From: an uncultured Clostridia bacterium
GTDB taxonomy: Bacteria > Acidobacteriota > Aminicenantia > UBA2199
Direction: 5' to 3'
Assembly (NCBI GenBank): GCA_964633415.1
Contig: CAZWFY010000003.1
Span: forward strand, 12,460-76,459
Length of the DNA stretch: 64,000 nucleotides
A model generated the notes under the pieces. The model saw nothing but the letters and a program-made list of their open reading frames with translations, ran no database searches and was not told the origin of the DNA. The position numbers were made by a program, and so were the translations under genes. Numbering within the stretch: the stretch's first letter is position 1; each line of letters starts with the position of its first letter. Positions 3,211 through 37,326 of this stretch are shown piece by piece.

Positions 3211-4619
3211 AATATTGCCCCGAGTGTAATCGTTTTATTCCGCAAAAAAAATATATTTGCAGTCGTTGCGGATCATCCGGAATTTCAGATTTTATTTTAT
3301 TAAACAGAGAAAAAAAAGAGATTGATAAAATTATTCTATTTGTAGAATTACTAAAATTTGATGATTGTGAATATAAGATTATTGAAATTCTTGGGACCGG
3401 TGGATATGGAATAATTTTGAAAGTGGAAAGTGTTGAAAGAAAAAAATTTTATGCTCTTAAACTTCCGCTCTCATTCAAAAATATGTTTACAAACAGTGGA
3501 GGATATTCCGAAGAGGAGTTAAAAGGTTCTGATGAATCGGTTGAAAGTGAAATATCAATTCTCGAAAAATTTAGTGGAGAGAGATTGTTAAAATTGGAAG
3601 GAACAGGTGAGTTTGTTTGCCGGAATGGGAAGCTGGAGGGGAAATTTAAGGGAATCCTTCTTGAATTAGCAATTGGGACACTGAAGGACCTTATACTAAT
3701 GGAGTCGCGGGGAAAGGTTAAGATAGGGTTTAATGAAAAAATAGAAATATCGAGACAGATCATCGAAGATCTTCAATATTTACATTTAAGAAATACTGTT
3801 CATAGAGATATTGCCCTTGAGAATATCTTTATTGTTGATAGAGAGAATAAAATTAACTTTGTGCTTGGGGATTTCGGGACTTCAAAAGTCAGAAAGATTG
3901 TAAAGAACAGTTCAACAACCAAAATTATCGGTAAGGAAAAATATCTTGATCCGGCAAGGTTTATAAAAAAATACAGGACAGATCCGAGAATTGATATGTT
4001 TACTGCAGGAATTGTCATTACTGAAATTTTTATAGGGGATTTATGGGACAATATCATATTTGAACCACTTTCAGAGATGAATTTCGAGGAAGATTTTTTA
4101 AAAAATTATGTTTCAAGCCATCTTGATAAAAAATTTATAAGATTTATTGCAAAATCTTTAAAACCTGAAATAGAAAAGAGATATAGAAATACAGATGAGA
4201 TGAAAAAAAAATTTGAAAAACTTGTGAAATCTGTAAGAAAACGAAAACAGTCGATAAAAATCAGGAAAGATATAAAACTTCTTTACAATATAAAAATTCC
4301 ATGGGAAGAAAAAACAGGAAACAGAGAAAGGATTGTAGATTATGAAAATCACTGTAAGTTAAGTTTTGATGCTGATGAAAAGTTGGTGATCAACTTTAAA
4401 GGTGTCAGTATATCAAAGGTTATTTTGAAGAATACTCCGTTAATTAATATATCGAATTCAAAAAACAGTATAGAGATATCAATTGATAGAGATTTCGTAA
4501 AAGAGAGTTTGAGGATATTTTCGAAAAAGCATTATGACAAGGATAAAGGAATTCTCTATTTTCAAAATAACTTGAGAATTATCTATATTCTGTCTATGAC
4601 CAGATACAGGAGATATTAG
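3207..4619 (+). CDS. Hanks-type protein kinase with N-terminal zinc ribbon
   Basis: CPEC...CSRC ribbon; Gly loop LGTGGYG; YALKL lysine; HRDIALEN; DFG. TTG start overlaps upstream TGA. Confidence 0.88.
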   Translation: MKYCPECNRFIPQKKYICSRCGSSGISDFILLNREKKEIDKIILFVELLKFDDCEYKIIEILGTGGYGIILKVESVERKKFYALKLPLSFKNMFTNSGGYSEEELKGSDESVESEISILEKFSGERLLKLEGTGEFVCRNGKLEGKFKGILLELAIGTLKDLILMESRGKVKIGFNEKIEISRQIIEDLQYLHLRNTVHRDIALENIFIVDRENKINFVLGDFGTSKVRKIVKNSSTTKIIGKEKYLDPARFIKKYRTDPRIDMFTAGIVITEIFIGDLWDNIIFEPLSEMNFEEDFLKNYVSSHLDKKFIRFIAKSLKPEIEKRYRNTDEMKKKFEKLVKSVRKRKQSIKIRKDIKLLYNIKIPWEEKTGNRERIVDYENHCKLSFDADEKLVINFKGVSISKVILKNTPLINISNSKNSIEISIDRDFVKESLRIFSKKHYDKDKGILYFQNNLRIIYILSMTRYRRY

Positions 4620-5146
4620 TGAAGGAAAAATTTCTAAGAAAAAAATATAAAAGTTATCGGAAATTTTTCAGACTGTTGAAAAAATCCGGAATGTTTAAAG
4701 CGGTAATTTATGACGGAGAAAGTTTTAATGAATATTGCTACCCCGGAATAAGAATGGATTCATGGAAAGCAGAGCTGATAGTTCTTTTTATTCTTGTCTT
4801 AACTTTGGTATTAGTTCTTGAAATGAAAACCGTAGTACGTTTTGACTTGGCATATAATATCAGCGGAAGGATTAAGATTGAGAACAGGGTTGATAGAAAC
4901 GGTATATCAAATCTACATAAAGCTGTTATAAACAATAAGGAAAAATTTGTTAAAAAGATAGTTCAATATGGTGCTGACATTAATTCCACTGATGAGTATG
5001 GTTGGACACCTCTTCACTGGGCGAAGTTTCTCAAGAGATCAAAAATATCGGAATTTCTTATCAATCATGGTGCTCTATCTGACTTTCCTTCTGAAAAAGA
5101 TTGGTTTAAGTTTAAAAAAGGTACAACTCCCGATAGTATTAATTGA
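4619..5146 (+). CDS. Membrane-anchored ankyrin repeat protein
   Basis: TM segment LIVLFILVLTLVLVL, then NGISNLHKAV...GADIN and YGWTPLHWA...LINHGA ankyrin repeats. Confidence 0.85.
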   Translation: MKEKFLRKKYKSYRKFFRLLKKSGMFKAVIYDGESFNEYCYPGIRMDSWKAELIVLFILVLTLVLVLEMKTVVRFDLAYNISGRIKIENRVDRNGISNLHKAVINNKEKFVKKIVQYGADINSTDEYGWTPLHWAKFLKRSKISEFLINHGALSDFPSEKDWFKFKKGTTPDSIN

Positions 5147-5192: not shown

Positions 5193-5225
5193 TATACACA
5201 ACCCCCTGGACGGGGGTTGTGTGTA
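5193..5225. terminator. Rho-independent, probably bidirectional terminator
   Basis: TATACACAACCCCC-TGGAC-GGGGGTTGTGTGTA, 14-bp stem with one G-U, between the convergent ankyrin and csp genes; short T-runs nearby on both strands. Confidence 0.8.
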
Positions 5226-29426: not shown

Positions 29427-29734
29427 TGTTTTATCCTCCGGAGTGAAAAATCCTTTTTTTTCACCCATATGATTTTTATATTTTTTCCTTTTAATTCATA
29501 CTCTATTTTAATCTCGTTCCGAATATTAAAACTCTCTTTATTTTCTAAAGAGAAGAAAATTCCCGCAACCAGCAATAATAGGGTTAATAGTACCGGAGTC
29601 CAATTGAATCCGTGTATGAAATTTTTTTGTCTGTATATTTTTTTGTTGATTTTATTCTCGATTTCATAAGGAATCTTCAGATCGACAGATTTTACAATAG
29701 TTTTTATACGTTCATTATTAATTTTATTTTTCAT
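29423..29734 (-). CDS. Putative anti-sigma factor (single TM)
   Basis: 103 aa, one TM (VLLTLLLLVAGIFFSL), coupled to the ECF gene. Confidence 0.65.
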   Translation of the reverse strand: MKNKINNERIKTIVKSVDLKIPYEIENKINKKIYRQKNFIHGFNWTPVLLTLLLLVAGIFFSLENKESFNIRNEIKIEYELKGKNIKIIWVKKKDFSLRRIKQ

Positions 29735-30300
29735 TTTTTTACTCCGAGTGATCTTCTTATTTTTTTTCTGGAATCCGATAGGATGACTTTTACGTTTCCG
29801 GGTTTAATTCCAATAATTTCAGAGATCTCATTGATATTGAAGCCACTGTCATAAAACATGAAAAAAATCTGTCTTTCCCTAAGTTTTAACTCTTGTGCGA
29901 TAGAGAAGATAATTTGGACAATCTCTTTGCCGGAGTCCTCCACCGACTGGAATTCCGTTGAATTGAATATGTTATCGACGAATTTGAACTGCGAGTTTTT
30001 TTTATAAAACCTTTTTATTTCATTATTGGCTATAGCAAATATCCATGGCTTGAAATCCAAAGATCTATCGAAATTTTTAAAATATTTAAATGCTCGTAAC
30101 ACTGTATTTTGATATATATCATTTCCGTCTTCTGCAAAATTAAGGGATTTCATAATAAAATTGTAGAGATTGATTTTTACGGGAGTAAATAAGTTCTTGA
30201 AAATTTCACTTCTTTGTTTATGGGTAGTTTTGTAAATACTTTTAGATTTTTTCTTTCCTGAAAATAAAAGTGACGAAAATCCCAATGCGATCTCTTTCAT
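29731..30300 (-). CDS. ECF RNA polymerase sigma factor
   Basis: DIYQNTVLRAFKY...FKPWIFAIANN (region 2); RERQIFFMFYDSGFNINEISEIIGIKPGNVKVILS (region 4). Confidence 0.92.
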   Translation of the reverse strand: MKEIALGFSSLLFSGKKKSKSIYKTTHKQRSEIFKNLFTPVKINLYNFIMKSLNFAEDGNDIYQNTVLRAFKYFKNFDRSLDFKPWIFAIANNEIKRFYKKNSQFKFVDNIFNSTEFQSVEDSGKEIVQIIFSIAQELKLRERQIFFMFYDSGFNINEISEIIGIKPGNVKVILSDSRKKIRRSLGVKK

Positions 30301-30370: not shown

Positions 30371-30982
30371 CTAATGAGTGTTACCTGAATCAAGGAGGAA
30401 AATTGCTTCCTTTGCGAGAAGGTTAGGAAAAATTCTTATAATTCTGTTTTGAGAAATAAATGCCGAATTTAAAATTTTTATTTTTTTCTTGTCACAAAAG
30501 AGCATAAAATCCTTTATAGAAAGAAATCTCAGGTTTGGTGTTCCGAACCATTCATAGGGCAGGGAAGTTGTCATAGGGGTTCTTCCCCGAAAGAAGAGTT
30601 GATAACGTGTTTTAAAATATGCAAAGTTGGGAAATGCGATTATAACGGATCTTCCTATCCTCAATGCTTCATCTATGATCTTTTTCGGAAATTCCGTTTT
30701 CTGAAGACTGTTGTTAAGAATTACAAAGTCAAATGACTTGTCGGGAAAATGTATAAGACAGTCATTAAAGTCGAGGTTAAATACATTAAGCCCTTTTGAA
30801 ATACATTCGGATACTTTCTCACTGTCTCTCTCAATCCCTTGACATTTAGCTCCTCTTCTATCTTTTAATTTTTTCATAAGAGTTCCCGACCCGCATCCGA
30901 GATCCATGACTTTTGCTCTATCCGAGATAAATTCCGATATTATTTTATGATTTTTATCTTTTTTATAATTCATTTTCTTCAC
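30371..30982 (-). CDS. metW: Methionine biosynthesis protein MetW
   Basis: VMDLGCGSG SAM motif, AFPNFAY, GRTPMTTSLPYEWFGTPN; downstream of metX. Confidence 0.93.
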   Translation of the reverse strand: MKKMNYKKDKNHKIISEFISDRAKVMDLGCGSGTLMKKLKDRRGAKCQGIERDSEKVSECISKGLNVFNLDFNDCLIHFPDKSFDFVILNNSLQKTEFPKKIIDEALRIGRSVIIAFPNFAYFKTRYQLFFRGRTPMTTSLPYEWFGTPNLRFLSIKDFMLFCDKKKIKILNSAFISQNRIIRIFPNLLAKEAIFLLDSGNTH

Positions 30983-32099
30983 AAATCCTTTCTAAAAAAT
31001 TCTTTATTATTCCGGACTCTTTTTCCTGCTCAAGTAAAAATGCATCGTGTCCGTATGAAGATTTGATTTTTGCATATGTAGTGTTGACTCCTTTGCTCAT
31101 TAGAAAGTGAATTATATCTTCCGAATAGCTGTGAGGATAGAGCCAGTCCGAATCAAAAGAGATGAGAAGGAAGGATGGAAAGATATCGGAATAGTTCTTT
31201 ATCAGCTTGTCTTCTGAAACGTCAAAATAGTTGAGGGCACGTGTTATATAGAGGAAACTGTTTGCATCAAACCTATCAACAAAAGAGTTACCGTTATAAT
31301 TCAGATAACTCTCAACTTCAAAATCAATATCAAACGAATTGCTGAATTTTTTATTTTTTAATCGTCTTGAAAATTTTTCTTCCATGGAGATCTCGCTCAT
31401 ATAGGTGATATGTCCTATCATTCTTGACAATGACAATCCTTTTTTCGGGATTTGTTTTTCATAATAATTTCCGTTATTCCAGTTTGGATCCCTTATTATC
31501 GATTGTCTGGCAACTTCTGAGAAAGCAATTTGCATGGGAGATTGTTTCCATGCGGCTGAAATTGAGATTACTGAAGCGGTAAATTCTGGGAAATCCGATG
31601 CAATTTGCAAAGCAAGCATTCCGCCCATTGAACCTCCGGCGACAGAAAATAATTTTTTAATTCCCAGAAAATCCAATAATTTTTTTTGAGCTTTGATCAT
31701 ATCCGATAATGAAATAAACGGAAATTCAGTGCCATAAGGTTTCCCCGTATCCGGATTGTTTGAGGAAGGACCGGTAGATCCGCTGCAACCTCCGATGATA
31801 TTTGAACAGATAATGAAAAATTTTTCCGTATCAAATGCTTTTTTAGGACCGATAAGGTTATCCCACCACCCCGGTTTTTTATCCGAATTGTTGTAATATC
31901 CGGCCGCATGTGAATCCATAGTTAATGTGTGCTGGATCAATATGGCATTGTCTCTTTTAACATTTAAAGTGCCGTATGTTTCATAGGCGATTGTTATGGG
32001 GCCAAACACTATTCCCGACTCAAGTAAAAGACGGTCACTCTTTTTCCCCCCGAATGTAAAATAATTTTTCTTTACTTTCCCTATCGATCTGTTTCCCAT
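30963..32099 (-). CDS. metX: Homoserine O-acetyltransferase
   Basis: AYETYGTLN, GGSMGGM nucleophile elbow, FDANS, YGHDAFLLE. Confidence 0.95.
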   Translation of the reverse strand: MGNRSIGKVKKNYFTFGGKKSDRLLLESGIVFGPITIAYETYGTLNVKRDNAILIQHTLTMDSHAAGYYNNSDKKPGWWDNLIGPKKAFDTEKFFIICSNIIGGCSGSTGPSSNNPDTGKPYGTEFPFISLSDMIKAQKKLLDFLGIKKLFSVAGGSMGGMLALQIASDFPEFTASVISISAAWKQSPMQIAFSEVARQSIIRDPNWNNGNYYEKQIPKKGLSLSRMIGHITYMSEISMEEKFSRRLKNKKFSNSFDIDFEVESYLNYNGNSFVDRFDANSFLYITRALNYFDVSEDKLIKNYSDIFPSFLLISFDSDWLYPHSYSEDIIHFLMSKGVNTTYAKIKSSYGHDAFLLEQEKESGIIKNFLERICEENEL

Positions 32100-32100
32100 T

Positions 32101-33408
32101 TTATTCTCCGCCGTTTACTTTTTTTAATGCCTGATCCAGATCAGAGATGATATCGTCAGGGTTCTCTATTCCGACCGAGAGTCTTATAAAATCTTCCGTT
32201 ACTCCGGCTTCCAGTCTCTCTTTTGCCGTTAATCTCCGGTGGGTTGTTGACGCAGGATGAATTGCAAGTGTTCGTGTATCTCCGATATTTGCGAGATGAG
32301 CGATCAATCCGAGTGAATCAATAAATTTTTTTCCGGACTCCTTTCCGCCTTTTATTCCGAATCCGATCACAGCTCCGGTACCTTTCGGGAAATATTTATT
32401 TGCGAGAATATCATTCTCTTTGCTTCCCGAACCGGGAAAATTAACCCACGAAACTTTCGGATGCTCTTTTAAAAAAACAGTGATTTTTTTTGCATTTTTT
32501 ATATGTTCTCTCATTCTTACATGAAGTGTTTCAAGACCTTGCAGTAGAAGAAATGAATTAAATGGTGAAATGGATCCTCCGAGATCTCTTAACATAGTCA
32601 ATCTTGCTTTCATAATATAGGGTGTGCTTGCAGATACATTTTTAAATTTTTCGGAAAAAATCATTCCGTGGAATTCAGGGTCAGGTTCCGAGATATCCGG
32701 ATATTTCCCTTTACTCCAGTCGAATTTTCCGGAATCGACAACAAGTCCTCCCATTGAATTTCCGTGTCCTCCGATATATTTTGTTGCAGAATATACAACG
32801 ATGTCCGCTCCGAAATGAAAGGGCTGAAAAATATAGGGAGAAAAAGTGTTGTCAACGATCAAAGGAATATTATATTTTTTTAAAATATCCTTTAATCCTT
32901 CTATATCTGAAATAGTCAGAGAAGGATTACCAATTGATTCTGTGAAAACCGCTCTTGTTTTCTCGTTAATTAAAGGCTTAATCTTTTCAAATTCGTTGAT
33001 CGGAACAAAATGTGTGGTTATTCCGAATTTTTTAAATGTATATCTGAAAAGATTATGTGTGCCGCCATAGAGAGATTGGGAGGATATTATTTCATCTCCG
33101 GCTTTGGCGATTGATAATATAGATGAAGATATTGCTGCCAATCCGCTCGCAAATGCAACCGCACCTTTGCCACCCTCCAGTTCTGCTATCCGCTTTTCCA
33201 GAACGTCGGTCGTCGGGTTTGAGATCCGTGTATATATATTGCCTGCTTCATTCGATTCGAAGAGGGATGTTGCATGATCACTGTTTTTAAATCGAAATGA
33301 TGTGCTTTGGATAATAGGAACCGCTTGTGCTCCGAAAGCATCCCGGGGATCATATCCTGCATGCAGTAAAATTGTCTCTCTGTTATATTTTTTCTTTTTT
33401 TCAGTCAT
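32101..33408 (-). CDS. metY: O-acetylhomoserine sulfhydrylase (PLP)
   Basis: [22 protein letters not shown] (PLP Lys), [18 protein letters not shown]. Confidence 0.95.
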
Positions 33409-34793
33409 TTTTTATCCTTTATTCGGTTGAAAAATTCTTTATGAATGGCAGTCAATGCTTTTTTGCAATCACTGTCGTCTATGATCAGATACATTGAAGT
33501 CTCTGATGCTCCGAGAGAGATTATCCGGACGTTTATCTTCTCTTTGTTTAAAGCGGATAAAATTTTTGAAGCTATTCCGAATCGTTCTCCGATTCCTTCT
33601 CCGACTGCAGCAAGGATGGAAATATTATCTATTATTGAGATTTCTTCAAGTATAAAACTTTCGATATTTTCAAGTATTTTAAAGCTTTCCCTAATATCTT
33701 CCGTTGAAAGAAGAAAGTTTATAGATGTCTGTGATGTGATTATTGACTTGATGTTGATTCCGGCTTTATTGAATTTTTTAGATACAACAGCTATTATTCC
33801 CGGTTTTTCTCCGACATTGGCACCTTTAAGTCTTAGTATCGAGATATCATTATCATAAGTAATACTTTTTATTACATCTTTTACGACAGATCTTTTTGAA
33901 TTAATAACCGTAGCCGGCGAATATTTTCCGGAAATATCTCCCAAACCGAATATTCTCAATTCTATGTTTCTTTCCTTAATAGGGATGAATGCACCCGGAT
34001 GGATTATTTTAGCTCCGAAATATGATAATTCGGCAGCTTCTTCATAGCTTAAATGTTCAATAGGTTTCACCTCTTTTACTATTTTCGGATCGGATGTCAT
34101 AAACCCTTCGACATCTTTCCACAGATCAAGGAATTCGGCATCAATACATTTTGCGATCGATGCCGCTGTATAATCGCTTCCACCTCTTCCGAAAACCGAA
34201 ATACGCGAACCTTCGGAAATACCGTAAAATCCCGGAATTATATAATTTTTCTCCGGAGATAAGTTTTTCTTGACGGAATCAATTGAACGATTAAAATCGA
34301 CACCCGACCTGTCCGAAGAATCATATGAATATAATCCTATCTTTTCAGGGAGTGCTACACTGTTCACTATCCCGTAATGATTAAGGAACAGTGAAATAAG
34401 ATTTGATGACAATCTTTCCCCGAAACTGAGAACATATGAATGTGAAAAATCGGGAACATCGCTTATAAGTTGAAGTCCTGTGAGATAATTCTTTAATTGT
34501 TTCAGAAGTATAAGTATCTTCCTTCTGATTTCATTGGAGCTGCTTTTTTTATCTATGTTAATATTGATGAATGTAAAATGCAGTTCTTTCAAATATTCAA
34601 TGATATTATCAATGCTTTTTTTGTTAAAAACTCCCTTCTTTAAAAAGCAGGAGAGTTTGTCGGTAACTCCATACAGGGCAGATACCACAATTATCAGATA
34701 TTGAGAATATGACCGGACAGCGGAAAGGATCTTTTTAAAATCCGACGGCTCCTTTAGTACCGATCCGCCGAATTTAACTACGATCTTTTTCAC
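33405..34793 (-). CDS. lysC: Aspartate kinase with two ACT domains
   Basis: [36 protein letters not shown], two ACT repeats. GTG 34793 with SD GGAG preferred (alternatives 34805, 34829). Confidence 0.92.
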
Positions 34794-35817
34794 TGTTCTC
34801 TCCATAGAGTGATTGGAAGTATTCGGCATTAATCACCGATCCCCCCGCTCCTCCCCTTACAACGTTGTTCACAAGAAGATTGAATCCTATTTTCTCACCT
34901 TTTATTTTAAGTCCACCGGTAAAAACCTGCATTCCCCGGGGGGTTCCGAGGAAGGAGAGATTGTTGCGTGGTATTCCCTCATCGTCAAGATATATTACCG
35001 GTTTTTTTGGAATTGAAGGAAGATCTGTTATCTGTGACAATAAACCCCATTTTTTCAAAATACTTTCTTTGTCAGGATATGTGTTTAATTTCACCCAGAC
35101 GGTTTCGAGATGTCCGAATCTGACGGGAACTCTGACTGATGAAGCGAATATATCAAAATTGATATTGAGTATCGCCTTTGTCTCAAACTCAATTTTTTCT
35201 TCTTCACCCTTTATGAAAGGTATAACGTTATCTGAAATATCGATTGCAGAATGACCCGGATATCCGGCTCCCGAGATTGCCTGATAAGTGGATACGGTGA
35301 CCTCTTTAATCCCGAACTCTTTTAAAGGTGAAAGTGCTATTGCAAGTCCCGATGTGCTGCAATTAGAATTTGTGATTATAAATCCTTTATCAGGGAAGCC
35401 CTGCTTTTTTATCAGCTCTATAGTATCCGGGTTTACATCCGGGATAAGTATCGGAACGTCTTTATCCCGCCTGTGTGCCGATGAATTTGAAAAGATATAG
35501 AATCCTCCTTCGCGGAGGAATGATTCGATCTTATTTCCCGATTCCGCCGGTAGTGCTGAAAAGATATATTTAATTCCGCGTGACTTAAGTGCCCCGGCAT
35601 CGAGTTCTTCAAGAGTCATATTGAATATTTTCTCGTTCGGAGCGAAGGGAAGTTGCCATTTCACTTGATCCTTATATCTTTTTCCCGCTCTTTTTTTTGA
35701 AGCGATCAAGCTTTTAATTTCAAAAACATCATGATCCGAAAGCATACTGGTAAAGACCTGTCCTATAATTCCGGTAGCACCGATTATCGCTGCTTTTTCA
35801 GTTTTATTTTTCTTCAT
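34774..35817 (-). CDS. asd: Aspartate-semialdehyde dehydrogenase (archaeal/eukaryote-type)
   Basis: IIGATGIIG, SALP, NSNCSTSG catalytic Cys, QAISGAGYPG, VRVPVRFGH, NNVVRGGAG; SD AAGGAG. Confidence 0.94.
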   Translation of the reverse strand: MKKNKTEKAAIIGATGIIGQVFTSMLSDHDVFEIKSLIASKKRAGKRYKDQVKWQLPFAPNEKIFNMTLEELDAGALKSRGIKYIFSALPAESGNKIESFLREGGFYIFSNSSAHRRDKDVPILIPDVNPDTIELIKKQGFPDKGFIITNSNCSTSGLAIALSPLKEFGIKEVTVSTYQAISGAGYPGHSAIDISDNVIPFIKGEEEKIEFETKAILNINFDIFASSVRVPVRFGHLETVWVKLNTYPDKESILKKWGLLSQITDLPSIPKKPVIYLDDEGIPRNNLSFLGTPRGMQVFTGGLKIKGEKIGFNLLVNNVVRGGAGGSVINAEYFQSLYGENSEKDRS

Positions 35818-35876
35818 TTGAATTTCTCCTTTGATTTTTTTTGTATGGATTTCCCTAAGGAAAATAGATTTGAGAT

Positions 35877-35895
35877 GCCCCGATAGTTTCGGGGC
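35877..35895 (-). terminator. GC-rich hairpin in met leader (attenuator-like, no canonical U-tract on the coding strand)
   Basis: GCCCCGA-AACTA-TCGGGGC, starting 1 nt after the leader ORF stop. Confidence 0.5.
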
Positions 35896-35896
35896 T

Positions 35897-35926
35897 TTAC
35901 ATCAACATAAGTGAAAATATAAACAT
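35897..35926 (-). CDS. Putative Met-rich leader peptide MFIFSLMLM
   Basis: AGGAGG-CGGTAA-ATG TTT ATA TTT TCA CTT ATG TTG ATG TAA; 3 of 9 codons Met, upstream of a Met biosynthesis operon. Confidence 0.55.
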   Translation of the reverse strand: MFIFSLMLM

Positions 35927-35942
35927 TTACCGCCTCCTGAAT

Positions 35943-36042
35943 ACTATTCAGGGAAATAGTCCCTGCCGGATTACCACCTTATTCATAGAGAACAGGTTGG
36001 TGAGGATCGTAGAGTTCCGGACTCTCACCTCGTCTTCATAGC
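35943..36042 (-). ncRNA. SAM-I (S-box) riboswitch, non-consensus variant
   Basis: Folded by hand: P1 GCUAU/AUAGU; J1/2 GAAGAC; P2 GAGG/CCUC and GAGU/ACUC around a K-turn (tandem GA, UAC bulge); L2 CCGGA pairs with J3/4 UCCGG (pseudoknot); P3 ACC-AA-CC/GG-U-GGU; P4 CAGGGA/UCCCUG; upstream of met genes. Confidence 0.88.
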
Positions 36043-36072
36043 GTAAAGGCTCTGAAGAGATTAAACGAAATA

Positions 36073-36101
36073 AAGTTATCAAAAAATGTCGAATGTGTCA
36101 A
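36073..36101 (-). promoter_or_regulatory. Sigma70 promoter of riboswitch/met operon
   Basis: Minus strand TTGACA-N17-TAACTT, about 30 nt upstream of P1. Confidence 0.7.
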
Positions 36102-36147: not shown

Positions 36148-37326
36148 GTGACTGGAATAAAAATGGATCAGATAAAAAAGTTTTATATTACCGAGTTTTT
36201 AAAAACACAGAACTATTTTATCCCTGTAATGATACTTTTTCTTCAGTTCAACAAGCTTAATTACACTCAGATCTTTACATTATACTCCATTCAATCTGCA
36301 GCTGTTTTTCTCCTTGAAATCCCGAGCGGAATACTTGCGGATCGAATAGGAAAGAAACCCGCTCTGTTAGTTTCCAGAGTTTCTCTTATTCCTGCTTATT
36401 TTATTTTTGCTTTTCTTTCCGGATTCTTATGGTTCCTGTTTGCAATGATATTTCTTGCTGTAAATAAAGCCTTTAAGTCGGGTACTCATAAAGCGTTTAT
36501 TTTTGACTATCTGAAATATAGCGGCTCGGAAGTGACTCCAACCGAAGTTTATGGCAAGTGTAAGTTCTGGGCAAGGATCGGTGAAGCCATCGCTTCCGTT
36601 GCAGGAGGGGTTATTGCCGTAAAATACGGATATGAAACGGTTTTTCTTGCAGCGTTAATACCGGTTATTCTGAATATATTTAATACTGTAAGTTATGCTG
36701 ATATTGAGGGAAAAATTGGGATACGAATTCCGGGATTAAGAGAACAGTTCATTCATATTAAGAATTCAGCTATGGAGATATATGGGAAGAAAAATATGTT
36801 AAAGCTGATTCTTAATTCCGCTCTTTTTATTTTTTGTATCGAAGCTTCTGAAAAATTCCTTCAGCCATATATGGTGTCGGCAAAGATAAAAGTTGAATAT
36901 TTCGGTGTAATTTATATGATATTTATGCTCATAACCGCTTTTGCATCGAGATATTCATATACATTGGAAAAGCATTTCAAAAGATATTCGATAATAAATT
37001 CTCTGGGAATATTTGCGATCATCCCGTTTATATTTTTTTGGATCGGTATTGTTGAAAAATGGGGGATAGTTTTTTTTCTGATGATCTTTTTGTTAAAAAA
37101 TCTAAGAAGACCCATCTTAACTACAGCGTTGAATGAAAATATATCTTCATCAAACAGAGCGACGATTCTTTCGATCACGGCTCTTGCAAAATCAGTTTTC
37201 CTTATGCTTTTTCTACCGGTTATCGGATATATCTCCGATAATTTTTCAATGACCGGTGCTTTTATTGTAATCGGTCTGCTTGCTTTAATAAACGGAATTG
37301 TTTTTAAAATAGACAATACACCCTGA
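36148..37326 (+). CDS. MFS transporter
   Basis: LEIPSGILADRIGKK motif A; about 12 hydrophobic segments; NRATILSI. Start may be ATG 36163. Confidence 0.92.
   Translation: MTGIKMDQIKKFYITEFLKTQNYFIPVMILFLQFNKLNYTQIFTLYSIQSAAVFLLEIPSGILADRIGKKPALLVSRVSLIPAYFIFAFLSGFLWFLFAMIFLAVNKAFKSGTHKAFIFDYLKYSGSEVTPTEVYGKCKFWARIGEAIASVAGGVIAVKYGYETVFLAALIPVILNIFNTVSYADIEGKIGIRIPGLREQFIHIKNSAMEIYGKKNMLKLILNSALFIFCIEASEKFLQPYMVSAKIKVEYFGVIYMIFMLITAFASRYSYTLEKHFKRYSIINSLGIFAIIPFIFFWIGIVEKWGIVFFLMIFLLKNLRRPILTTALNENISSSNRATILSITALAKSVFLMLFLPVIGYISDNFSMTGAFIVIGLLALINGIVFKIDNTP

Follow-up and report, generated by a model that had tools for sequence, protein, structure and literature searches.

A SAM-I-type aptamer joined to a conserved methionine-codon leader ORF upstream of a methionine-biosynthesis operon in an uncultured Aminicenantes-like bacterium

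Introduction

Methionine regulons are textbook cases of RNA control, which is exercised by the S-box, the T-box, SAM-II and related elements. Methionine is also an awkward amino acid for leader-peptide attenuation, being at the same time the initiator amino acid. We analysed a 64,000-nt stretch of DNA (contig CAZWFY010000003.1, assembly GCA_964633415.1; the whole stretch is called the window) from an Aminicenantes-like uncultured bacterium. On its minus strand lies a methionine-biosynthesis operon, asd-ask-metY-metX-metW, whose leader joins an S-adenosylmethionine (SAM)-I-type aptamer to a Shine-Dalgarno sequence (SD) and a short open reading frame (ORF) that ends in Met codons. The locus raises the question of whether one leader reads both SAM and the supply of methionyl-tRNA, and by what logic the two inputs are combined.

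The first-pass annotation of the window had proposed a logic gate in which SAM binding exposes the leader SD and repression needs both SAM and Met-tRNA. Comparison with related leaders supported this in part. A conserved riboswitch-linked Met-codon leader exists, and the leader probably does read both signals, but neither the switch geometry nor the logic gate that had been proposed was supported.

Results

Anatomy of the leader

The elements of the leader, read on the minus strand from the aptamer to the first gene, were as follows.

35941-36044, minus: divergent SAM-I (S-box) aptamer with helices P1-P4, matching RF00162 over model positions 1-108
35947-35943, minus: 3' strand of P1, AUAGU, read from the sequence
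35932-35938, minus: leader SD AGGAGG (35938-35933) and a conserved C, together the putative 3' strand of a helix P0; the spacer to the AUG is CGGUAA
35926-35897, minus: leader ORF MFIFSLMLM-stop (AUG UUU AUA UUU UCA CUU AUG UUG AUG UAA), with orthologues in relatives; start AUG 35926-35924, Met7 35908-35906, Met9 35902-35900, UAA 35899-35897
35896, minus: the single nucleotide, A, between stop and hairpin
35877-35895, minus: 7-bp G+C hairpin GCCCCGA-AACUA-UCGGGGC, beginning 1 nt past the leader stop and conserved as a structure
35831-35876, minus: G-poor, pyrimidine-containing spacer with AAUCU and UUUUCCUU (35864-35857), a candidate pause site, Rho utilization (rut) site or anti-SD
34774-35829, minus: asd (aspartate-semialdehyde dehydrogenase, archaeal-type; NCBIfam TIGR00978, 323 bits), operon gene 1, including its SD GGAG (35829-35826)
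35817, minus: start codon ATG of asd, 59 nt after the hairpin

This anatomy agreed to the base with the first-pass annotation, which had put the distance to asd at about 60 nt. The adjoining of a SAM-I-type aptamer, an SD with a short ORF, Met codons at the 3' end of that ORF and a hairpin was likewise supported.

Conservation of the leader ORF

This organism has been sampled poorly, and the Asd proteins nearest to that of the window were 54-64% identical; the closest named relative was a Candidatus Aminicenantes metagenome-assembled genome. Loci were gathered by means of Asd homologues and a DNA pattern for the 5' element of the leader (described below), which gave 16 further leaders and 17 with the window; the search of genome contigs gave 3 loci, and the pattern gave 8 matches in metagenomes, 3 of them chance matches in coding DNA. 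Fetched loci were labelled L001-L024. ORF counts refer to 17 leaders and the alignment, column-pairing and fold tests to 15, all from one lineage. The further leaders had a common build of promoter, 5' element, aptamer, GGAGG, an AUG 4-7 nt on, and a short frame with a stop. Downstream of them lay asd-ask, followed by metY, metX, HcyBio or another gene, and the SAM-I-type aptamer was associated with methionine/SAM metabolism genes in the window and relatives alike. In L024, a named Aminicenantes genome, no riboswitch was found upstream of asd, and a scan of the fetched loci for other riboswitches found none at the gathering score.

The SD, an in-frame start and an in-frame stop were kept in 17/17 leaders, with an SD-AUG gap of 4-7 nt and an ORF of 6-9 codons. 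ORF length was 21, 24, 27 or 30 nt, with indels only of 3, 6 or 9 nt. The stop codon switched between UAA and UGA among leaders and was always a stop, and the N-terminal codons drifted freely. The last sense codon was AUG in 16/17 leaders and Met-x-Met-stop was present in 15/17, the AUG at position -3 being absent in L009; AUG accounted for 28 of the 98 internal codons. The leader peptides were MFIFSLMLM (window), MLLSKSMLM, MLLTPHMLM and MLFRLFMSM in clade A, MNPLMYM, MNPLMSM, MNPLMFM, MNSLMIM and MISSKLM in clade B, and MILHMIM, MRNNFMIM and MIIIMS in more distant leaders. Each sequence was shuffled 20,000 times with its dinucleotides preserved. An AUG at SD spacing, followed by an open frame whose last sense codon is AUG and whose stop falls 1 nt short of the hairpin, appeared in no more than 0.3% of these shuffles, and in no more than 0.02% when Met-x-Met was required as well. 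Judged by these shuffles and by its recurrence in diverged relatives, the arrangement clearly lies beyond chance. The first-pass annotation had named comparison with related met leaders as the check that could reduce the ORF to chance or a relic; the ORF and its Met codons proved to be conserved, so that outcome did not arise.

From this strong comparative evidence we infer that the mini-ORF is translated and that the terminal AUG codon or codons and the hairpin register are under selection. The opposite reading, that the ORF is untranslated and its SD-like and AUG motifs belong to an expression platform made of RNA alone or are the relic of a lost first gene, is scarcely credible to us. It can draw on the fact that translation has sequence support only, from a short region and a one-lineage alignment, but it would leave unexplained a frame that survives indels of 3, 6 and 9 nt, stops that alternate without being lost, the constant range of the SD-AUG gap beside free N-terminal codons, and the low shuffle probabilities. 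Furthermore, RNAalifold showed no conserved pairing in the ORF stretch.

The hairpin beyond the stop was the most G+C-rich perfect hairpin of the 64-kb window. Its stem varied with compensation (C-G to U-A, C-G to G-C), giving arms such as GCCCC/GGGGC, GCCCG/CGGGC, UCCCCAC/GUGGGGA and GCCC/GGGC, and stem length and loop varied as well. The gap of 1 nt between stop and hairpin was found in 16/17 leaders, namely the 16 with a terminal AUG. The outlier, L021 (1223-1500), had the same aptamer, the peptide ending in Ser, a weak hairpin 8 nt past the stop and poor anti-SD complementarity, and its operon carried a HcyBio (PF01837) gene in place of metY. The joint degradation of P0, terminal Met and hairpin adjacency in L021 suggests that all three are part of one mechanism.

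As the first-pass annotation had stated, no classical terminator followed the aptamer. The terminator scan found no terminator-like site there in the window, and the first 8 nt past the hairpin stem held 2 U in the window and 2-4 in relatives, with U-runs beginning 7-15 nt on. The hairpin was rejected as an intrinsic terminator because the adjoining U-tract and a scan match were both missing. The organism does use intrinsic termination signals, as indicated by a near-canonical terminator at 5196-5222 on the plus strand (a 9-bp perfect G+C-containing hairpin, extendable by G.U/A-U, then a U-run), 50 nt past the end of the plus-strand gene 4619-5146.

The aptamer and the pairing of the leader SD

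The aptamer scored 40.6 bits against RF00162 (E = 8e-8 on 551 bases scanned). The default Rfam scan of the window was empty because this score lies below the gathering score of 44.4. Homologous aptamers scored 34.3, 29.3 and 25.1 bits, and two were not detected at E < 0.01. Helices P2, P3 and P4 were in the consensus of the 15 leaders with compensatory changes, P1 was paired in 100% of cells, and the P1-P4 four-way junction was borne out by covariation. Two CCGG tracts, one in the P2 loop and one in the junction between P3 and P4 (J3/4), are self-complementary, invariant or nearly so, and placed for a pseudoknot, and their lack of variation leaves no covariation signal. By alignment, the aptamer appears to be a divergent SAM-I type, with SAM as its presumed ligand.

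Upstream of and overlapping the aptamer, three further elements of the leader bear on the fate of the SD.

36073-36101, minus: promoter predicted from conservation, with -35 TTGACA 36101-36096, a 17-nt spacer with TG 36081-36080, and -10 TAACTT 36078-36073
36033-36058, minus: ligand-free 5' hairpin of the RNAalifold consensus, UCUUCA 36058-36053 with UGAAGA 36038-36033, and an inner stem AGC:GCU
36045-36050, minus: anti-SD GCCUUU, the 5' side of P0, a helix that would extend P1 at its lower end; it pairs with the leader GGAGGC

TTGACA-N17-(TG)n-TAnnTT occurred at equal distance in orthologous leaders, and transcription is predicted to start at about 36066 (minus). The promoter was missing from the promoter scan because its -10 TAACTT falls below the scan rule. 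Leaders of clades A and B carried the 5' element as UCUUCAGAGCCUU; the distant L020, L021 and L023 showed variants of it, GCUUCAAAGCUUCU among them, and CUUCA was invariant throughout. In the unconstrained consensus fold, the 5' hairpin sequestered both the anti-SD and the P1 5' strand, and the stretch from SD to stop was free of pairing. The outer stem of the 5' hairpin was paired in 98.9% of cells and invariant in sequence, and the inner stem kept its pairing in L020, L023 and L021, where its sequence and length differed.

The conserved partner of the leader SD was GCCUU(U), which lies 5' of P1 and pairs with (G)GAGGC as P0. This SD:anti-SD complementarity was paired in 97.6% of cells, with one-sided changes that preserved pairing (C-G to U.G in 2 leaders, U.G to C-G in 1 and G-C to G.U in 1) and with the anti-SD variant GCUUCU in L020 and L023. 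GGAGG was invariant, and the C after it was kept in at least 90% of leaders although the ribosome has no need of that C, which we count in favour of P0. When P1 was forced, P0 was present in the minimum-energy fold of 15/15 leaders, and these folds were 1.6-8.8 kcal/mol less stable than the free ones; by our estimate SAM binding, being tight, could make up this difference. Since a conserved P0 together with a ligand-free 5' hairpin has the architecture of a translational OFF switch, SAM binding most likely hides the leader SD. This is the opposite of the sign first proposed, and the rule that repression needs SAM and Met-tRNA does not follow once SAM hides the SD.

A further pairing over the SD was seen in three clade A leaders (L004, L005 and L006), where GGAGGCA can pair with (A)UGCUUUU of the Met-Leu-Leu/Phe codons in a G.U-rich hairpin over SD and start; this hairpin is absent in the window.

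The proposal that SAM exposes the SD had relied on an alternative hairpin, CCUGAAU-AGU-AUUCAGG, formed by the 3' strands of P4 and P1. The window does contain this hairpin (-7.5 kcal/mol; z = -2.3 relative to dinucleotide-shuffled sequences), but it was not conserved. Its columns were paired in 62.5% of cells, inner pairs were broken in 7-11 of the 15 sequences, and local refolding found it strong only in the window and L023 (8 bp, -6.2 kcal/mol). On the column test and this refolding, it was rejected as a feature of the family.

The same hairpin is the basis of a classical attenuator, in which it would hide the SD, SAM would free the SD, full transit of the ribosome would open the downstream hairpin and turn the operon OFF, and a stalled or absent ribosome would leave it ON. 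We consider this reading unlikely. It would explain the register, because both Met stalls spare the downstream hairpin and only the stop opens it, and it would give a sensible sign for Met starvation. Besides the window and L023, the alternative hairpin was of moderate stability in L009, L013 and L014 (-5.5 kcal/mol), and the P4 3' strand (CCCU or CCUC) was always partly complementary to GGAGG. However, the alternative hairpin was weak or absent in 10/15 leaders (-0.7 to -3.8 kcal/mol, z > -1.4), the more stable P4 must melt for it to form, the conserved P0 and 5' hairpin are left unaccounted for, and opening of the downstream hairpin yields no conserved terminator, only a 3-bp GGG/UCC mini-stem. 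Nor are we aware of any SAM-I switch by which translation is turned on, which counts against an attenuator of this kind. Its logic, in which the folded hairpin means ON, thus fits the register but needs a SAM-exposed SD that the comparative data do not support.

Two other pairings within the leader were considered. An antiterminator of CCCUGA-A-UAGU with ACUA-UCGGGG, the loop and 3' arm of the hairpin, was dropped because it was not reproduced in L004-L006. By visual inspection, the 5' element could pair with the region around the stop codon (CUUUAC:GUAAAG) in just a few leaders, and this pairing was not adopted.

UCUUCA of the 5' element (36058-36053) is also complementary to UGAAGA at the start of asd (35816-35811), and the two are joined in the minimum-energy fold of the whole leader of the window. 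In 13 leaders, duplexes of the 5' tract with the asd ribosome-binding site (RBS) ranged from -4.0 to -14.1 kcal/mol, with 12 contiguous pairs, from the SD through the GUG start, in L013 and L014. Such pairing would allow two independent repressors to act on one leader, the mini-ORF and hairpin being a separate Met-tRNA attenuator consulted only at low SAM, and this would be compatible with P0 and with the hairpin register. But cognate pairs of 5' tract and RBS were no better than non-cognate ones and barely above shuffles (p = 0.04-0.8), which points to generic pyrimidine-purine matching; UCUUCA already has a partner UGAAGA in the aptamer core, and the interaction would span ~200-400 nt. The long-range pairing was rejected because of the non-cognate comparison, and we regard two independent repressors as very unlikely.

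Output of the leader

With the SD hidden by SAM, the reading that we adopt, plausible rather than probable, is a two-sensor leader in which the presence of a ribosome is the signal for asd-ask-metYXW. Without SAM, the 5' hairpin would hold the P1 5' strand and the anti-SD GCCUUU, leaving the leader SD and the mini-ORF unpaired. With SAM, P1 would form and the freed anti-SD would stack beneath it as P0, burying GGAGGC. The second sensor would be the gated ORF of 6-9 codons, in which only the start, the last AUG (usually also the one at -3) and the stop are conserved. At high SAM no ribosome would load and the leader would be unprotected; premature termination, polarity or decay would then remove transcripts before asd is reached, and the operon would be OFF. 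Occupation of the mini-ORF by a ribosome would counteract this loss, and scarce Met-tRNA would lengthen the ribosome's dwell and bring full induction. The sign of each input and the output step are here as we infer them from comparative sequence.

The register adds a more specific claim. Counted from the first base in the P site, the hairpin begins ~11 nt away when the A site holds the last Met codon. Takyar, Hickerson and Noller are said to have found in 2005 that the ribosome begins to unwind mRNA at about +11. The gap of 1 nt between stop and hairpin implies that a Met-stalled ribosome would sit against the folded hairpin: a ribosome awaiting Met-tRNA at either Met codon would abut the intact hairpin, which would open only with the stop in the A site. 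That the aptamer gates ribosome loading, and that terminal hungry Met codons set the dwell at this 1-nt register, at the boundary of the ribosome helicase, is a possible but insecure refinement.

The spacer from hairpin to asd SD ranged from 28 to 222 nt among leaders, and in the window 79 nt separated the leader stop from the asd start. Because the spacer varies so widely and tolerates a ~90-nt insertion, the output probably acts via the transcript (termination, polarity or stability), not via pairing with the asd SD. A translational attenuator of four segments, with the 3' arm of the hairpin binding a downstream UUCC anti-SD and so releasing the asd SD, was rejected on account of inconsistent asd SD accessibility and a stem of only 3 bp. 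In the spacer, C/G was 3.0 in the window as compared with 0.83 in asd, and 2-6 in compact leaders; a YUCC motif recurred after the hairpin in most relatives. A rut site there was not adopted, as the spacer, though G-poor, is just 28-45 nt in compact leaders.

Two observations concern the spacer itself. The ~90-nt insertion, located between leader hairpin and asd SD, contains two conserved hairpins (CCGGAUC...GAUCCGG, then a long stem from GGGGUUAGGGG); it was found in some clade-B leaders, at L015:1880-1975 and in L009, L013 and L022, and is missing from their close relatives L014, L001 and L008. It matched no Rfam family; a small mobile element, a repeat element and an extra regulatory module are candidate identities. 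The stretch 35815-35894 (minus) resembled Rfam freshwater-2, a hairpin followed by a AAGGAGAAA-type RBS, at 17.6 bits against a gathering score of 49.9 (E = 3.4), probably by chance.

Several points weigh against the two-sensor reading. The aptamer is below the Rfam threshold and SAM is its presumed ligand. The P0 strands are nearly invariant and show no two-sided covariation; ensemble SD accessibility differed little between mimics of the ligand-free and ligand-bound states in most leaders, and the window can bury part of the SD in the ligand-free state too. On the output side, no U-tract adjoins the hairpin, and the C>G spacer has the short length in compact leaders given above. Masking of the hairpin 5' arm gave no conserved alternative hairpin, only a 3-bp GGG/UCC consensus stem, and in folding, masking of the ribosome-covered stretch had no consistent effect on asd SD accessibility; no element executing the OFF state was identified among terminators, alternative hairpins and asd SD masking. 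Moreover, an absent ribosome and a Met-stalled ribosome both leave the hairpin folded, yet opposite outputs are needed. The signal must therefore be the presence of the ribosome and not the state of the hairpin, and this in turn leaves the exact 1-nt spacing unexplained.

This sign paradox would be gone if the SAM-gated ORF sensed no amino acid and served as a relay, in which restart at AUG-stop idles the ribosome, the hairpin is held open, and the polymerase escapes pausing or termination. The AUG right before the stop is indeed the most conserved feature (16/17), and the AUG at -3 is dispensable in L009. The ORF ends 1 nt from the hairpin, much as in the ribosome-dependent anti-termination of pyrE/pyrBI, and the U-rich tracts 7-15 nt past the hairpin could be pause sites. 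Relays through riboswitch-controlled upstream ORFs (uORFs) are known (PMC11260477). Nevertheless, trapping of restarting ribosomes at the AUG-stop of a leader ORF is no established mechanism of regulation in bacteria, the hairpin is without an adjoining terminator U-tract, and Met codons in the leader of a Met operon would be a coincidence. We therefore rate such a relay as quite unlikely.

Locus and neighbourhood

The remainder of the operon extends over 30371-34829 (minus), and its genes were assigned by NCBIfam and Pfam matches.

33405-34829, minus: aspartate kinase (ask)
32101-33408, minus: metY, O-acetylhomoserine sulfhydrylase
30963-32099, minus: alpha/beta-hydrolase, metX type
30371-30982, minus: metW

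The longest ORF of the aspartate kinase shares 56 nt with the end of asd (34774-34829, minus). Since the family alignments of the kinase start at about residue 14, its real start is probably further downstream, near the asd stop. An extracytoplasmic function (ECF)-type sigma factor gene (Sigma70_r2/r4; 29731-30300, minus) lies 70 nt beyond metW on the same strand. A major facilitator superfamily (MFS) transporter gene (36148-37326, plus) is divergent and has a 330-nt intergenic region in common with the met leader; a divergent MFS_1 gene stands beside the leader in L004 also, in the same synteny.

Discussion

The leader described here resembles SAM-I (RF00162) riboswitches in its four-helix aptamer, its full-length match to the model and its position upstream of methionine genes, where repression with SAM would be expected. 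It differs in scoring below the gathering threshold, in a divergent core (ACCAACC...GGUGGU in P3) and in an unusual 5' hairpin that would act as anti-P1 and anti-anti-SD. The platform also differs, being neither a terminator nor the RBS of the first gene but a P1 extension over the SD of an ORF of 6-9 codons. Two serial sensors on the leader of a methionine gene reportedly have a counterpart in Bacillus clausii metE, where Sudarsan et al. are said to have described tandem SAM-I and adenosylcobalamin (AdoCbl) riboswitches with two-input logic in 2006. There both aptamers have their own terminators, whereas in the present leader a translating ribosome would serve as the second sensor.

With the classical attenuators (trpL, hisL, pheL, leuL, thrL, ilv) the leader shares a short ORF with SD, cognate codons near the 3' end, a stable hairpin close by and a biosynthetic operon. 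Enrichment in cognate codons and an in-frame SD-ORF in every leader counted are as in an attenuator, but we found no mutually exclusive terminator and antiterminator, and no conserved pair of this kind or U-tract; the ORF is also much shorter, and initiation is presumably gated by the riboswitch.

Precedents exist for SDs of uORFs that are masked by ligand and for uORF-dependent Rho attenuation (PMC11260477, PMC12810186, PMC12360218). In the Mycobacterium tuberculosis B12 switch (ppe2) and Mbox (pe20), the bound aptamer masks the SD of a uORF whose state sets operon expression; Mbox involves Rho-dependent termination, and expression of ppe2 proceeds by termination-reinitiation where stop and start overlap in AUGA (PMC11260477, PMC12810186). 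Those uORFs are longer and their codons are unrelated to the ligand, whereas the ORF here is conserved only in its Met codons, ends at a hairpin and lies 59 to >200 nt from asd. A stop/start overlap of the ppe2 type is excluded in the window by the 79 nt between leader stop and asd start, and the only hint of a Rho-type output as in Mbox is the G-poor spacer with its C/G of 2-6 in compact leaders.

In Salmonella mgtA, an Mg2+ riboswitch is combined with the proline-codon ORF mgtL, the speed of whose translation alters leader folding and read-through (PMC12360218). One leader there likewise comprises a sensing RNA and a short codon-sensing ORF. However, Mg2+ and proline or translation are chemically unrelated, whereas SAM and Met-tRNA are consecutive products of the regulated pathway, and mgtA has defined alternative stem-loops and a rut site, none of which is defined here. 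In tnaC and speFL, a ribosome arrested at the end of the uORF blocks Rho and allows read-through (PMC12360218). That arrest depends on the nascent peptide and free ligand and masks an adjacent rut site, whereas here the peptide is not conserved, a hairpin occupies the position of the rut site, and a hungry-codon stall is proposed. In the metA leader of Sinorhizobium meliloti, a SAM-II riboswitch masks an SD, which is followed by AUG1 and a hairpin, and the functional start lies tens of nucleotides downstream (PMC9373788). It differs from the present leader in its riboswitch class, in an AUG1 that is in frame with metA and unused, in a validated U-stretch terminator and in having no Met-codon mini-ORF.

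The novelty claimed by the first-pass annotation can be kept in a narrower form. Neither the pairing of a SAM riboswitch with a Met-codon leader in the full-text literature searched, nor a Met leader-peptide attenuator in the literature searched, was found, but riboswitch-gated uORFs and leaders that combine a riboswitch with a leader peptide have already been described.

If the two-sensor reading is true, a ribosome-based sensor of Met-tRNA would be under the command of a SAM aptamer, and two-input control would be obtained from an RNA of ~250 nt. Such a leader would be without precedent both as a leader-peptide sensor of methionine and as a riboswitch whose direct target is a cognate-codon attenuator. 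The 1-nt register of stop and hairpin would offer a sharp, testable design rule for the conversion of ribosome position into RNA structure. It was recently found that riboswitches can act through tiny uORFs and not directly on a gene or terminator; the leader would be a further example, from an uncultured phylum. It would also provide a compact, testable case of two-signal integration with the first candidate for a leader that senses Met-tRNA.

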